Shown here piece by piece: positions 6,208-56,096 of a DNA stretch of 60,089 bases; the first letter of the stretch is position 1, and every line of letters starts with the position of its first letter. The DNA comes from Candidatus Pacearchaeota archaeon (lineage in GTDB: Archaea; Nanobdellota; Nanobdellia; Pacearchaeales; GW2011-AR1): positions 1 to 60,089 of the forward strand of contig JACOYL010000014.1 of NCBI GenBank assembly GCA_016181895.1, written 5' to 3'. A program made the translations under genes and the position numbers. Under the pieces are notes generated by a model, which was given only the letters and a program-made list of their open reading frames with translations, made no database searches and had not been told where the DNA came from.

Positions 6208-6618
6208 ATGAGCGAATACGAAAAACTTCTCGATGAAGCATACAAAAAAGTAAAGCAAGTGGCTTCTTCCAGCGAGAGATTTGAAATCCCGAAAGTCGAG
6301 GGGCATTTCGAGGGGAAGAAAACAATAGTGAGTAATTTTTTCCATATTGCAGAACACATAAGAAGAAACCCGGAGCATTTTCAAAAATTCATTCTCAGGG
6401 AATTGGCTGCTTCAGGACAAAGAGAATCCGATAGGCTGGTTTTGAACAACAAAATCCCGAGCGAAAAAATAAATCAGAAGATAGAACAATACATGAAGGA
6501 ATTCGTGATTTGCAGGGAATGCGGAAAGCCCGACACTGAATTAATCAGGGAAGACAGGTTGACGTTCATAAAATGTTCGGCGTGCGGAGCGAGGCACAGC
6601 GTTAGGGGAAAGATTTAA
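6208..6618 (+). CDS. eif2b: Translation initiation factor aIF-2 beta
   Basis: ERFEIP...NF..IA..IRR.PEH; Zn ribbon CRECGKPDT...CSACGA. Confidence 0.96.
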   Translation: MSEYEKLLDEAYKKVKQVASSSERFEIPKVEGHFEGKKTIVSNFFHIAEHIRRNPEHFQKFILRELAASGQRESDRLVLNNKIPSEKINQKIEQYMKEFVICRECGKPDTELIREDRLTFIKCSACGARHSVRGKI

Positions 6619-6971
6619 ATTCCCCTCAAATATTCTATGCAAAGTCTATCATATTTGCATCTTGAATCTATCGCGTCGTCGTTGTAATCAAATCGTCCAT
6701 TGACGAGCTTTTCAAAAATATCTTTGGACAATCTTATAACCCAAAATTGTTTTCCTCTGTAATCATAAGGAGAAATATTTTCAGGATATCTTCTTATATT
6801 TATTCCAGGCTCACAACTATGTCCAACGGAAATTTTTCTGTCAACAACGCTTATTCTTAAAACTCCATTGATGTTTGAAAAATCAAAATCAGAATATCCA
6901 TTTTCCCGAATAAATTTCACATCTCTTTCAAGAAGAGATATGTTTGGTCCATTGCTAAAAAATGCCCTCAT
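6615..6971 (-). CDS. Hypothetical protein
   Basis: 118-aa ORF, co-oriented with the next orphan. Confidence 0.55.
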   Translation of the reverse strand: MRAFFSNGPNISLLERDVKFIRENGYSDFDFSNINGVLRISVVDRKISVGHSCEPGINIRRYPENISPYDYRGKQFWVIRLSKDIFEKLVNGRFDYNDDAIDSRCKYDRLCIEYLRGI

Positions 6972-6976
6972 AGAAT

Positions 6977-7255
6977 TTAATTCCTGTATCCTTCCATAAA
7001 TTCCTGATTTAATGTCTTGGTCAAAATCGCGGGAAAATTATCCTCTGTTATTTCCTGCAAATCTTTTATTGATTTTCTGGCTTCCTCCATTGAAGAACCC
7101 CGATATCTCACATCAAGGATTCCTTTTTCTAATCTTCCATATATCTTCATACTTTCAGAAATATTTTCTTTCGGATTAAAAGAAATAATTGCTCCATAAG
7201 TTCTCGTTCCTTCATTGTTTCTTCCAAATGCAAGAGCAATATAAATTTCTGCCAT
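6977..7255 (-). CDS. Hypothetical protein
   Basis: ATG at 7255 about 22 nt downstream of a TATA-like box. Confidence 0.6.
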   Translation of the reverse strand: MAEIYIALAFGRNNEGTRTYGAIISFNPKENISESMKIYGRLEKGILDVRYRGSSMEEARKSIKDLQEITEDNFPAILTKTLNQEFMEGYRN

Positions 7256-7368
7256 AAAAATACCAATCAATTCCCCTTAAATAAATTTCCGTGATTTTTG
7301 AACAAAACAAATCTTTAAAAACGAATTTTAACTTATATTAAATCTTAAATCCGAAAGGAGGTATCAAA

Positions 7369-11591: not shown

Positions 11592-12920
11592 ATGAAAACA
11601 AAACCAAAAGTCTTGGTCGCGATGTCCGGCGGCGTTGATTCCTCTGTCGCCGCCTTGATGATGAAAAATCGCGGATTCCAAATTCTTGGGGTTTTCATGA
11701 AAAACTATTCTGATTCAAAAAATGATTTTACAGGGGATTGCCTTTGGAAAGACGAACGTAGGATTGCAATGAAAATCGCAGCAAAACTTGGAATTCCCCT
11801 TATCACTTTGGATTTTGAAAAACAATACAAAAAACTCGTGATTGAAAAAATGTTCTCTGATTATAGAAAAGGAATTACCCCAAATCCAGACATTGACTGC
11901 AATCAAAAAGTGAAATTTCCTTTGTTAATCAAAGCAGCGAAAAAACTCGGCTGCGATTTCGTTGCAACAGGGCATTATGCGAGGATAAAAAAAATAGTGA
12001 CAAAGAATGATAACAATAAAATTTCTAATGTAAAAAACAAATTATTTAATAAAAATCACAAAGATTTAATCATTAATTCTCATGGGGCGGGCTGGCGGGA
12101 AGCGAAAAAGTGGAATGAAAAAAAAGTGAAATATCAACTCCTCCGCGCAACCGACGAATCAAAAGACCAGAGTTATTTTCTCTACAGATTAAAGCAAGAT
12201 GAATTGAAGCATTTGATATTTCCAATAGGAGATTACACAAAAAAACAAATAAGAGAAATAGCAAGAAAAAATCATTTCCTGAATTACGACAAAAAATCAA
12301 CAGTAGGAATTTGTTTTGTCGGAAAAGTCAACCTGAAAAAATTTCTTCAGGCTCGGATTGCACCAAAGAAGGGAAAAATCCTGAATCCTCAAGGAGAAAT
12401 CATGGGAGAGCACGACGGAATTTATTATTATACAATAGGGCAAAGAATCGGGATGAGATTTGGAATTGATGTTTCAAAAAAGCATGATGATAAAAACCTC
12501 ATGAAGCGCTGGTATGTCGCAAAAAAAGACGTAAAAAAGAATACCATCATCGCAGCGCCGGAAGGACATCCTTTAAACTACAGAAAGGAAATTTGGCTCA
12601 AAAACCAAAGTTGGATTAATGCCGATGAAATAATTAATACCAAAACAAAAAGGTTAACAAATAAACAAATCATTGATATTAATTTAAATTCTCGCGGGCG
12701 GGCGGGCGAGAATAAGACAAAAAAACAAAATGAAAATTCCAAGAAAATCCTAGCAAGAATCCGTCAAGTAGGAGAATTGCTTTCTGCAAAAATTGAAAAC
12801 AGAAGCGGAAAAATAAAAGTCATTCTCGACAAGGCAATAACAGGAATTTCAGAAGGACAGGCAATAGTTTTATATGATGGAAAAGAAGTCCTCGGCGGCG
12901 GAGAGATTAGATTTAACTGA
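11592..12920 (+). CDS. mnmA: tRNA 2-thiouridylase MnmA (bacterial type) with two in-frame insertions
   Basis: SGGVDSS, TPNPDIDCN, ATGHYAR, KDQSYFL, GICF, YTIGQR, GQAIVLY..LGGG. Confidence 0.95.
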   Translation: MKTKPKVLVAMSGGVDSSVAALMMKNRGFQILGVFMKNYSDSKNDFTGDCLWKDERRIAMKIAAKLGIPLITLDFEKQYKKLVIEKMFSDYRKGITPNPDIDCNQKVKFPLLIKAAKKLGCDFVATGHYARIKKIVTKNDNNKISNVKNKLFNKNHKDLIINSHGAGWREAKKWNEKKVKYQLLRATDESKDQSYFLYRLKQDELKHLIFPIGDYTKKQIREIARKNHFLNYDKKSTVGICFVGKVNLKKFLQARIAPKKGKILNPQGEIMGEHDGIYYYTIGQRIGMRFGIDVSKKHDDKNLMKRWYVAKKDVKKNTIIAAPEGHPLNYRKEIWLKNQSWINADEIINTKTKRLTNKQIIDINLNSRGRAGENKTKKQNENSKKILARIRQVGELLSAKIENRSGKIKVILDKAITGISEGQAIVLYDGKEVLGGGEIRFN

Positions 12921-30479: not shown

Positions 30480-30765
30480 TTTATCATTAACATTTGGTTT
30501 AGGGTGGGCGGTAAGCAAATTCATGAAAAAAATTGATATAGGAAAAGATTAATGCTAAAATTTTATCGTGAGTAAATAACTTATGAAACTCGGTTTTTAC
30601 ATTAACACTTTGTTTTTGGGGTGGGCGAACGCTTTGATTTTGACTATCTTTAAAATTAACAACAAAATCGGGGCGTGAGTAGGGTTGGGGCAAATTAATT
30701 AAAAGAAAAAATTCACAAACGAGTGGGGTCGCGAGTTGTCGGGGGATTGGTGGTGGGGCGATTAA
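30480..30765 (+). repeat. Mosaic repeat locus (at least four units)
   Basis: GGAAAAGATTAATGCTAAAA...TTTTACATTAAC...GGGGTGGGCGAACGC; tail GTCGGGGGATTGGTGGTGGGG. Confidence 0.85.
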
Positions 30766-32589: not shown

Positions 32590-32661
32590 CGAACCCAGGA
32601 GGAATCGAACCTCCATCCTCGGGGCCGAAACCCGAGATTCTGTCCATTAAACTATGGGTCC
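32590..32661 (-). tRNA. tRNA-Arg(TCG)
   Basis: GGACCCA/TGGGTTC acceptor; TCGGG-TT TCG GC-CCCGA; GGAGG-TTCGATT-CCTCC. Confidence 0.92.
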
Positions 32662-32799: not shown

Positions 32800-33085
32800 G
32801 CTCGCCTTCTACTCGTACCACGACTTTATATTAATAAAAATAAATTTGTCAAAGTCAAAACACTCGGCTCGCTTAGATTAATGTAAAATCTGCTCATAAG
32901 TTGATAAAAGTTGTAAAAGATGGTTAACGATTAAAATTGGATTTTTAGGGGCGGGCGAGCAAGATTGCGAGTGAAATTGATATTCAATGGGAAAAGATTA
33001 ATGCGAAAATTTTATCGTTGGTAAATAATTAATGAAATTTGGTTTTTACATTAACACTTGTTTTTATGGGTGGGTGGGAACAAAT
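32800..33085 (+). repeat. Mosaic repeat locus; head split by an inverted unit
   Basis: GCTCGCCTTC [inverted unit] TCGGCTCGCTTA; unit at 32990-33075 closely matches 30541-30627. Confidence 0.85.
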
Positions 33086-39454: not shown

Positions 39455-39860
39455 AAATTCTCCATTAAAACTCGGTTTTTGAATGGGAGAGCAATTTCAC
39501 GAGTGAAATTGATATCCGACGGGAAAAGATTAATGCAAAATATTTATCGTCAGTCAATGGTTTCACAAGACGCAAATGGTTTATCATTAACTTTGGCTTG
39601 GTTTCTGGGGTGGGCGAACGCTTTGATTTTTAGTATCTTTAAAATTAATAATAAAGTCGGGCCGTGAGGAGAGCAACTTCGCGGGACAAATTTATTTTGG
39701 TTAGGTTAACGTGCAAAAGTTCCTTATCATTAGTTCATCAATTTCTCAAAATCGGATTTGCCATTAGCATGGATTTTTAAGGGTGGGAGAGCAATTTCGT
39801 GGCAGGTAGTATAATTAAGACATCAATAAGCTGTATGAGATTGCGAGTGGGTGGGAATAA
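39455..39860 (+). repeat. Mosaic repeat locus (longest, about five units)
   Basis: Shares units with 30540-30680, 32960-33020 and 55720-55910. Confidence 0.85.
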
Positions 39861-44836: not shown

Positions 44837-45225
44837 TCGGCTCGCTGAAATTGGCTTATTCTATGAACTCGCATTTCTGTATAAATGATGATGAAAAATT
44901 TTAATGTAAAAAATTTATCTTCGGTTAATAGTTGCACAAAACATTAAAGATTTTTATGGTTAATATTGGTTTCTTTAATTAGGAAATTTGTGAAAAAAGA
45001 TTAATGTAAAATTCAGCATTAAATTACCATGATAAAATTTATTTGATAGTTAAATGGATTGCTGGGGTGGGAGAGCAACTTTGCGAAAATTATTTGAAAA
45101 AGGCTAATGTGCAAAATTCTTTACGGATGATTAATAATTGCTAATTGTTTTGTCATTTAACTTTTTTAGGGGGTGAGTGGTTGGGGGATTGGCGGCGGGG
45201 CGAATTGATTTGCAAATTAATGTAT
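44837..45225 (+). repeat. Mosaic repeat locus
   Basis: TCGGCTCGCT head remnant; three TAATGT units; GGGGTGGGAGAGCAACTTTGCGA; GTTGGGGGATTGGCGGCGGGG tail. Confidence 0.8.
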
Positions 45226-51220: not shown

Positions 51221-51739
51221 ATGGAAAAAATCCAGGCTTATTTCCTTGGGCAAAACATTCAGAGCAATTCCTCGGAAGCCTTCTCGTTGTATGAAAAAAG
51301 CCATTTCGGCGAGAGGACAGAGGGAAAAATAAGATATTCTTTTTCAGAGGCTCTTTTTCTTGTGCAAAAGGGAAAAATGGAAATCCTTTCAAAAAACAGG
51401 AAAATTTTGCACAAGGACTTGATGAAAAAAATCCAAAAATTCGACAAGAGAATCCAGATAAAATATCCTGTCTTCAGGGATTTGAGGGAAAAGGGATATG
51501 TCGTCAAAACAGCATTGAAATTCGGAGCTGATTTCCGCGTTTATGAAAAGGGAAAGAAAATTTCAGAGGTTCACGCAAAATGGGTTGTTTTCTGCGACAG
51601 CGAAACGCAAAAATTGACGTGGCATGAATTCTCTGCGAAAAATCGCGTCGCTCACTCAACGAAAAAAAACCTTCTTCTCGCGATTGTCGACGAGGAAAAC
51701 GACGTGACTTACTATGAAGTCAAGTGGATTAAGCCTTGA
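51221..51739 (+). CDS. endA: tRNA splicing endonuclease (single-unit form)
   Basis: DLREKGY.VKTALKFGADFRVY, H, RVAHSTKK, VTYYEV.W. Confidence 0.95.
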   Translation: MEKIQAYFLGQNIQSNSSEAFSLYEKSHFGERTEGKIRYSFSEALFLVQKGKMEILSKNRKILHKDLMKKIQKFDKRIQIKYPVFRDLREKGYVVKTALKFGADFRVYEKGKKISEVHAKWVVFCDSETQKLTWHEFSAKNRVAHSTKKNLLLAIVDEENDVTYYEVKWIKP

Positions 51740-51789
51740 AATAAATGATTCTAAATCTTTGAACTCGGAAAAAGATGCTCTTCTAAAAA

Positions 51790-51942
51790 AGGATAGTCGC
51801 AAAATAATTTACAAGTTGATTAAATCGGTTTTGACATTAATAGCCGTCTTCGGGGTGGGCGAGCAACTTGACTTTGACAATCTTAAAATTATTAATAATA
51901 AAGTCTGGTTGCGAGTTGGTCGGGGGATTGGTGGTGGGGAAG
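51790..51942 (+). repeat. Mosaic repeat locus
   Basis: CATTAA..GGGGTGGGCGAGCAACTTGACTTTGACAATCTTAAAATTATTAATAATAAAGTC..GGTCGGGGATTGGTGGTGGGG. Confidence 0.85.
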
Positions 51943-51986
51943 CAAAACACACTAAAATTTATAATCCTCTTCTTTCTCTTTCACTC

Positions 51987-52892
51987 ATGGCTCAAAGGAA
52001 CGCGCTTGAGATAAAAGAAAAGATACTTTCCATCTTCAAGGCCAGGGGCCCAAGCCTTCCCGTCCATATTGCAAAAGAAACCGATTTGAGCATTCTCTTC
52101 GCCTCTGCTTTTCTTTCCGAACTTATTGCCGAAAAAAAAATGAAATACAGCATCATGAAAATCGGCAGTTCCCCCCTGTATTTTCTTCCCGGCCAGGAAA
52201 ACATGCTGGAAAACTTCTCGGAACATTTGAAAGGCAGGGAGAAAGAAGCATTCAATCTTATCAAGGAAAAAAAATTTCTCAAAGATTCCGATACAGAGCC
52301 GGCGATAAGGGTTGCATTGAGGGAAATAAAAGATTTCGCCATTCCGTTCAGGATTGACGACGAGGTTTATTGGAGGTATCTTACTGCCGAAGAATCAGAG
52401 TTCATAGAAACAAAATTCAAGGAAACGGGAAAGCCGAAAATGTTTCACAAAGTCCAGGTTGTTGAAAAGCAGCAAAAACCGGTTGAAGCAAAGGAAGAAA
52501 TGCAAAAAGAGTTGTTTGAAGAAAAAGAGGAAAAAAAGCAGGCAAAGCCGAAGGCGAAAAAAATCCCTTCAAAAAGAAAAAAATCAAGGGAAAATGAAAA
52601 GTTCCTTGAAATGGTAAAGGAATTTCTTGCAAAATCCTCGATTGAAATAATAAGCATCGAGGGATTCAAAAAAGACGAGCTTATTCTCAAAGTCAAAATC
52701 AATGGAGACGAACAATTGCTGGCTGCCTACAACAAAAAGAAAATTTCCGAGAAAGACATAATAAAAGCCGCGAAAAAAGCCGCGGAACAAAATCTGAAAT
52801 ACTCGATTCTCTCCCTGGGAGAATTGCCGAAAAAAATTTCTGATTTGATAGAAGCCCTTAAAGACATAAAGGAAATAGAAAAAATCGAATGA
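51987..52892 (+). CDS. Hypothetical protein with N-terminal wHTH
   Basis: GPSLPVHIAK..LSILFASAFLSEL; start chosen at ATG 51987 after TTTATAA box. Confidence 0.75.
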   Translation: MAQRNALEIKEKILSIFKARGPSLPVHIAKETDLSILFASAFLSELIAEKKMKYSIMKIGSSPLYFLPGQENMLENFSEHLKGREKEAFNLIKEKKFLKDSDTEPAIRVALREIKDFAIPFRIDDEVYWRYLTAEESEFIETKFKETGKPKMFHKVQVVEKQQKPVEAKEEMQKELFEEKEEKKQAKPKAKKIPSKRKKSRENEKFLEMVKEFLAKSSIEIISIEGFKKDELILKVKINGDEQLLAAYNKKKISEKDIIKAAKKAAEQNLKYSILSLGELPKKISDLIEALKDIKEIEKIE

Positions 52893-55619: not shown

Positions 55620-55932
55620 CACGAGGAATTTAATTTACATCTAAAATATTAATGTGTAAAACCATATCTCGATTATTAATAAAAAGGTTATAGATTAATA
55701 TCGGGATTAATATCGGCTTTCTTGGGGCAGGTGAGTGATTTGACTTTGACAATCTTAAAATTATTAAGAATAAAGTCGGGTTGCGAGGAGAGCAACTTTA
55801 CGAGGGAAATTTATTGGAATTAGGTTAACATGTAAAAATTCTTTTATCATTAATTTATCAGTTTCTCAAAGTTGGATTTGTCATTAACATGAATTTCTAG
55901 GGATGGGCGGTCGTGGTGATGGTGGTGGGAAA
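55620..55932 (+). repeat. Mosaic repeat locus
   Basis: About 190 nt colinear with 39605-39790; tail GGGCGGTCGTGGTGATGGTGGTGGGAA. Confidence 0.85.
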
Positions 55933-56021: not shown

Positions 56022-56096
56022 CGCCCCCGACAGGATTTGAACCTGCGACCCTCAGATTAGAAGTCTGATGCTCTATCCAGGCTGAGCTACAGGGGC
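56022..56096 (-). tRNA. tRNA-Arg(TCT)
   Basis: GCCCCTG/CGGGGGC acceptor; TCAGA-CT TCT AA-TCTGA; GCAGG-TTCAAAT-CCTGT. Confidence 0.95.

Follow-up and report, generated by a model that had tools for sequence, protein, structure and literature searches.

The stretch of DNA analysed here (hereafter the window; 60,089 nt) is contig C23 of G000, a 736-kb Pacearchaeota genome that consists of 24 contigs and is 89.8% complete. It carries mnmA, the gene for a tRNA 2-thiouridine synthase, and two segments within the mnmA reading frame, insert 1 and insert 2, resemble a DNA repeat whose usual place is between genes. The gene and its two inserts are located as follows.

11592..12920, + strand: mnmA (tRNA 2-thiouridine synthase), 442 aa when counted from the ATG at 11592, in an open reading frame (ORF) that is open from 11559.
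11994..12131, + strand: insert 1, ~46 residues (135-180) that take the place of a hairpin tip of 4 residues and add ~42 aa net.
12621..12731, + strand: insert 2, which adds ~34 aa net between WIN and ARIRQ.

The MnmA protein matches the tRNA_Me_trans HUP, PRC-barrel (M) and C-terminal domains of Pfam (best E 1.6e-70), and its closest homologs, among the matches listed (best 120), are labelled Pacearchaeota or Nanoarchaeota by their sources. Residues that are invariant over 85 aligned homologs are all kept, namely S12, G13, G14, V15, S17 and S18 of the SGGVDS loop, D100, C103 and C241 (numbered with the window MnmA as the reference row), and we take these to be catalytic. Insert sizes were determined by comparing the window protein with 119 homologs (120 rows, the best homologs among the matches listed). 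The interval T126-Y195, which follows GHYARIKK, comprises 70 aa in the window MnmA vs. 24-31 aa in 61 of the 120 rows, and residues 340-392, which follow WIN, comprise 53 aa vs. a median of 19 in the homologs. Lys and Asn together account for ~46% of insert 1 and ~35% of insert 2 (counted from the translation). The repeat-like cores are at 12025-12097 (insert 1) and 12634-12710 (insert 2); within them, the motif TAATGTAAAA begins at 12026, and a 22-nt G-rich string of insert 2 lies at 12689-12710, with a 30-nt string of insert 1 at 12071-12100. Both inserts use one shared frame of the repeat unit, in which, as read from the sequence, the two TTAA anchors give no TAA. The original prediction had described two Asn/Lys-rich extras of ~40 aa, one after GHYARI and one after WIN, in an enzyme with intact catalytic motifs; homolog alignment confirms the extras, places both at lineage-specific insertion sites and finds the motifs present, and all of the strings quoted from the inserts are found at the positions given for them.

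In this Pacearchaeota genus the repeat family fills the DNA between genes, and related repeats exist in other Pacearchaeota. Starting from a single intergenic copy, an nhmmer profile was iterated on intergenic copies only (the mnmA rows were left out); it finds 100 genome copies of a unit termed module A at E<0.01. Just 7 of 153 profile matches at E<10 fall within ORFs, though crude ORF calls span ~85% of the genome, and the family occupies only ~1% of the genome. Module A is an AT-rich unit of ~95-110 nt, with a 5' anchor of TAATG plus an A-run, ATCATTAA as an internal anchor and a tail rich in G (GGGGTGGGCGAGC type), and its units are frequently found in tandem arrays. Module B, a 61-nt element with 37 copies at E<0.01, often follows the module A tail and is predicted to form a hairpin (14 predicted pairs, 8 with compensatory changes, based on 9 sequences of which two are from another genome). 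The arrays tend to close with an additional G-rich terminal module.

R1 is a sequence-only Infernal model built from 16 intergenic units. It finds the family in all five genomes of the genus (84, 41, 14, 23 and 27 matches); in a search of 36 further relatives from the family and order, a single marginal match was the only one. A more distant Pacearchaeota genome, G043, contains repeats with the common tail and module B in a near-identical G-tail-plus-hairpin layout. Five further genomes gave weak R1 matches only (best 22.6 bits, in G041); part of those matches lie inside ORFs or are G043 repeats with the shared tail and module B.

Module A copies are polarised along the contigs. Their orientation is that of the contig majority in 95 of 100 copies, and all 19 intergenic copies on C23 (E<0.01) are on the + strand. 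Orientation is unrelated to the strands of neighbouring genes (the four arrangements occur 28, 27, 26 and 18 times), and in 8 of 9 contigs it matches the sign of the AT skew corrected for gene strand; gene-strand-corrected GC skew showed no consistent tie to repeat orientation. The combination of one orientation per contig and an AT skew independent of the genes points to a process that is replication-coupled or single-strand, and the pattern as a whole suggests either insertion by such a process or selection on orientation. Single-strand (Y1) transposition is known to be biased in orientation with respect to replication.

When the nhmmer profile is run against the genome, insert 1 matches at 12025-12097 (+ strand, model positions 7-90, 11.9 bits, E 0.071) and insert 2 at 12673-12709 (+ strand, model positions 55-91, 11.5 bits, E 0.092). 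In a search of the gene only, the E-values are 1.1e-4 for insert 1 and 1.9e-4 for insert 2, and the rest of mnmA never scores above -0.9 bits. R1 gives 22.1 bits for insert 1 (12026-12093) and 23.3 bits for insert 2 (12634-12710, model positions 7-91), which ranks insert 2 18th and insert 1 19th in the window, right behind 17 intergenic copies. No match of ≥11.5 bits was obtained from 20 genomes shuffled in 150-nt blocks and one reversed genome (maximum 9.7), and a stricter null (40-nt-block shuffles, filters off) yielded 2 matches of ≥11.3 bits in 20 genomes. As the stricter null corresponds to ~0.1 matches per genome, two matches within ~250 nt of ortholog-defined inserts are far beyond chance. 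The original prediction had named the lack of a significant profile match as a refuting outcome; the profile did match both inserts.

The reciprocal searches lead back to the same family. With insert 1 as query, five of the 10 non-self matches are family members and one is the other insert; for insert 2 the corresponding numbers are six and one out of 8, and the matches to family members are in the correct orientation. Both inserts carry the TAATG-A-run, the ATCATTAA anchor and the G-rich tail in order and spacing, an arrangement with which a MAFFT alignment with the 16 units agrees, and both are on the + strand, the orientation of the 19 intergenic module A copies on C23. The mnmA copies depart from the intergenic location that is usual for the family, both being within a reading frame, and module B has no match in either of them. 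The claim that both inserts follow a unit-plus-G-tail architecture in the + orientation is borne out by these collinear alignments (nhmmer, R1 and MAFFT), as is the caveat that the match to the intergenic units is loose. Judged by sequence likeness, the homology of the inserts to the family appears modest but not the product of chance.

Related genomes show where the inserts are shared and what they are made of. Insert 1 is common to G003 (where it is shorter) and to the homologs P0003 and P0004, with the G-tail part alike at the protein level in all three, and is absent in G001 and G004, which belong to the same genus. Insert 2 has counterparts across the genus: at site 2, G004 has a shortened unit that keeps the same tail, and the G001 insert carries the array-terminal G-rich module. 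The site-2 insert of homolog P0006 contains KRAGLRVGRG, a stretch identical to one in the RsmB/F insert of the window's own genome (see below). In a Pacearchaeota lineage unrelated to that of the window, the two mnmA inserts of locus L105 (genome G041; 6552-6743 and 7218-7349) show a weak match to one another (E 0.027 and 0.098 within the locus), a pattern of one element at two sites as in the window.

A scan of coding sequences (CDSs) for further in-frame copies, which the original prediction had proposed, found three host genes in which the repeat is clearer than in mnmA. Every other notable match within an ORF coincides with an ortholog-defined insert.

C22:2387-3271: FmrO-like methyltransferase, repeat antisense to the gene; module A tail and module B (E 4e-7 and 6e-5) at aa 114-159.
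C19:43966-45165: RsmB/F-like methyltransferase; module A tail (E 0.002), module B (E 3e-8) and terminal module at aa 80-156.
C19:42132-42740: PUA-like protein; ~27-31 extra residues at aa ~134-164.

The FmrO-like insert is absent in most relatives and present in same-genus G003, and most relatives lack aa 80-156 of the RsmB/F-like protein. The PUA-like insert is confined to this species, being absent in 21 of 21 relatives with a match, including 4 of the same genus; its DNA, used as query, matches terminal-type units at E 0.0017-0.016, and 13 of its 16 non-self matches are at family places. All in-CDS copies (5/5) follow the orientation of the contig majority, even where this is antisense to the host gene (FmrO-like). 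Likeness to the family is clearest in the species-only PUA insert, middling in the inserts of two genus members and weakest in the more widely shared mnmA inserts, and this drop with insert age fits the prediction of decay. These sister cases in other genes carry the most weight for a repeat origin of the mnmA inserts. The PUA-like and RsmB/F-like genes are ~1.2 kb apart on the same strand (C19:42132-45165), and the host genes found so far all act on RNA. An additional ORF of G000 (L129, C9:4005-5702) is class II tRNA synthetase-like, with anticodon-binding and core domains, and has SLGVGG near its N-terminus, the DNA of which matches the repeat tail; the ORF looks like GlyRS and may hold a sixth in-frame copy, or may have an over-called start.

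The two MnmA loops have a dynamic history. Site 1 is occupied by an insert in 58 of the 120 best homologs, site 2 in 36 and both sites in 27, and a FastTree phylogeny of 359 core columns requires at least 27 changes for site 1 and at least 20 for site 2, which indicates that both loops were filled or emptied many times. Correlated gain of the site-1 and site-2 inserts was not significant by independent pairs (median p 0.69), so the raw overlap (27/36) is not read as linkage. Inserts this common and this variable are also in line with an ordinary, lineage-specific loop expansion, in which AT-biased mutation and slippage acted at two permissive sites, any likeness to the repeat unit is compositional convergence, and a Gly/Arg-rich patch was kept by selection, e.g., for tRNA contact; a GG, GW or GxG[GWR] patch is present in 35 of the 58 site-1 inserts. 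We nonetheless consider such an expansion unlikely, given that the alignment to the repeat runs collinearly through ~80 model positions and keeps the order of the two TTAA anchors and the tail, that block shuffles preserving the local layout seldom reach the score, and that the reciprocal matches fall on family members in the right orientation. The inserts of relatives at the same site contain unmistakable family modules (the terminal module of G001, the 10-aa stretch of P0006), and there are clear copies in four or five other genes, neither of which favours expansion.

Several results weigh against a repeat origin, and the first three of them would also suit loop expansion. Each mnmA match is, on its own, borderline genome-wide (E 0.07-0.09). 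On a conserved GILGWAGG stretch of the RsmB/F gene that is not an insert, R1 reached 17.9 bits (E 2e-4), a false positive with a similar layout, and the E-values of R1 are therefore optimistic for sequences that are AT-rich and then G-rich. G016, which belongs to another genus of the same family, has a short G-rich site-2 insert; in 387 kb of its genome the best profile match has E 3.9 and the tail motif does not occur, and in the whole genome R1 finds nothing. This insert either outlived the family there or arose otherwise, and it is the one, weak instance we found of an insert in a relative without the repeat, an outcome that the original prediction had named as refuting. Inserts of five other lineages (L086, L104, L105 (two), L095, L097 and L081) gave no flanking match at E<0.01 when compared with their own 8-21 kb loci, and insert 1 of L105 had nothing but short AT-rich BLAST matches in its own genome, G041. 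As regards the element itself, RNAalifold predicted 0 conserved pairs for the 16 module A units, no Y1 transposase (PF01797) was found in the 89.8%-complete genome, where the one TnpB-like match (PF07282) is below the cut-off (14.3 bits), and no target-site duplication is seen at the empty site of the PUA gene, the only such comparison, in which the boundaries are fuzzy.

Repeat-bearing genes invite the concern that repeat DNA was misjoined into mnmA when the metagenome bin was assembled. Repeats do break assemblies: contigs of run X4 stop close to the borders of the inserts, and the mnmA gene of G003 (L002) has a run of N exactly at site 2, after which the frame is lost. Short-read assemblies seem to be broken by repeats at this site. 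A misjoin is nevertheless scarcely credible for the window, as inserts are present at the same codons in the independently assembled G003, G004 and G001 and in the proteins P0003 and P0004, and the frame is preserved. Single contigs of X1 and X3 also span the whole stretch without differences, although they are not independent, being possibly the source of this DNA. A low-likeness X1 contig that skips 11993-12129 was not used as evidence; its source is probably a co-occurring relative in which insert 1 is absent.

It is likewise very improbable that the inserts are intervening sequences (a bulge-helix-bulge mRNA intron or an intein-like element) that are removed from the mature enzyme. In the ORF calls and alignments, all of the in-CDS copies (two in mnmA, and those in the RsmB/F-like, FmrO-like and PUA-like genes) are in frame and stop-free over ~31-77 codons, which is more than RNA that is spliced out would need. 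The Pfam scan of the MnmA protein found no intein domain, and the likeness of the G-tail part of insert 1 in the proteins of G003, P0003 and P0004 also argues against removal.

In structural terms, the inserts are predicted to be disordered surface loops on an intact MnmA fold. An AlphaFold2 model of the protein (85 aligned sequences) has a mean predicted local distance difference test score (pLDDT) of 82.6. Insert 1 (residues 138-172 in the model) is coil with no secondary structure (pLDDT <55) and bridges strands 130-137 and 178-185, and insert 2 (residues 349-385) is coil with pLDDT 40-49 and precedes strand 386-390. The best Foldseek matches are the solved MnmA structures 2hma, 2det, 2der and 2deu, on which the core superposes with target-normalised template modelling (TM) scores of 0.85-0.89 (E 1e-33 to 1e-36 for 2hma, 2det and 2der), and phmmer alignments to PDB sequences break at both insert sites.

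Taken together, the extras of MnmA are likely to be in-frame repeat copies that arose by a process comparable to the DNA-repeat-to-peptide process of Rickettsia, here in a DPANN archaeon. This part of the original prediction is supported by the profile matches, the orientation, the ortholog sites and the sister genes; the term ‘palindromic’, carried over from the Rickettsia elements, does not apply to the mnmA unit because module A has no conserved hairpin. The inserts would be old, partly decayed, in-frame copies of module A from a modular, strand-polarised intergenic repeat family. The repeat presumably inserted into the gene, and not the reverse, with the copies landing at two permissive sites, i.e., a beta-hairpin tip in the catalytic domain and the linker into the C-terminal barrel. 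They would be read through in the sole unit frame that avoids the TAA of the two TTAA anchors, such that the AT-rich body would give an Asn/Lys/Ile-rich peptide and the G-tail a Gly/Arg/Trp-rich peptide. The outcome would be disordered surface loops on an otherwise intact enzyme, and we infer that these loops are translated, kept and tolerated.

Rickettsia palindromic elements (RPEs; Ogata et al. 2000, 2002) are, according to the part of PMC10969869 that treats them, short repeats found in intergenic DNA as well as, in frame, within unrelated housekeeping genes. The repeat described here has much in common with RPEs as presented there: a length of ~100-150 nt, copies that are both intergenic and in frame in housekeeping genes, a reduced host genome, inserted peptides where the fold is undisturbed (here by predicted structure only) and several related sub-families or modules. 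It differs in that the host is a DPANN archaeon and not an alpha-proteobacterium, and in that the mnmA module lacks a conserved hairpin, which is formed only by the neighbouring module B. The tandem arrays with one orientation per contig are features absent from that part of the PMC10969869 account, and the two elements are likened by kind and not by homology.

The repeat is also small, non-autonomous, multicopy and mostly intergenic, as are repetitive extragenic palindromic (REP)/bacterial interspersed mosaic element (BIME)-type sequences and IS200/IS605-derived palindrome-associated transposable elements (PATEs). The same properties are given for miniature inverted-repeat transposable elements, or MITEs, within the part of PMC10969869 that concerns them. 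No terminal inverted repeats were found in module A, and this and the results for Y1 transposase, TnpB and target-site duplication given above, each within the limits stated, may set the repeat apart from both MITEs and PATEs. Asn/Lys-rich low-complexity insertions form disordered surface loops in conserved enzymes of AT-rich genomes (e.g., Plasmodium) and are highly variable between close relatives. The mnmA inserts share these traits; unlike such insertions, what they align to is a DNA repeat that is defined and dispersed, has fixed anchors and carries a G-rich tail, and they are not simple codon-repeat expansions. We found no description of such elements in DPANN or Pacearchaeota in the open-access literature.

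If correctly interpreted, the inserts extend the Rickettsia phenomenon of selfish DNA in coding genes to DPANN archaea, with genomes of ~0.7 Mb, by way of an element that is built differently (a non-palindromic unit plus a hairpin module, tandem arrays, one orientation per contig). They offer a concrete source for unexplained length differences among Pacearchaeota orthologs, such as those at the two MnmA sites, and a caution for annotators and structure predictors that loops of this kind would be repeat DNA and not domains. Once closed genomes are available, the insertion mechanism can be tested by means of the orientation rule. A more speculative proposition, which we think unlikely, is that the repeat is not just junk that the host tolerates: the G-rich tail and terminal modules, which in frame give Gly/Arg/Trp-rich patches (GRGIGGG, RGRAG, GAGWRE), would make this replication-polarised selfish element, for which no transposase is recognisable, a recurrent source of new RNA-contacting loops in DPANN archaea. 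The proposition stems from the host genes, which act on RNA (MnmA, RsmB/F-like, FmrO-like, PUA-like and possibly GlyRS), and the patches resemble what we take to be RGG-type RNA-binding motifs. If true, it would explain the repeated filling of the two MnmA loops in dozens of Pacearchaeota lineages.

Approximately 20 module A copies are distributed across positions 5624-55912 of the window. The following copies and arrays illustrate the organization of the family.

30543..30686, + strand: reference intergenic copy, module A at 30543-30648 (the best nhmmer match, 71.1 bits), then hairpin module B at 30623-30681 (E 6.5e-14).
32809-32868, - strand: module B, hairpin element.
39524..39798, + strand: intergenic array of two module A units with module B (39612-39670) between them.
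44895..45179, + strand: intergenic array of three module A units with a G-rich terminal module at the end; the terminal module matches the PUA-gene insert.
51806..51918, + strand: module A tail and module B (51857-51918), directly upstream of a gene.
55643..55912, + strand: intergenic array of two module A units, one module B (55730-55789) and a G-rich terminal module.

A long ORF call at 51714-52892 runs through the repeat copy at 51806..51918 and probably has an over-extended start, the true start being downstream, near the methionine of MAQRNA...; the protein downstream of this copy has no Pfam match. Module B, unlike module A, occurs in both orientations on one contig, and on contig C1 there is a single orientation switch of module A, between ~2.6 and 15.5 kb. 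At Rfam gathering thresholds two tRNAs are the only matches in the window; these tRNA genes (32590-32661 and 56022-56096, - strand) are near the repeat arrays at 32809-33080 and 55643-55912.

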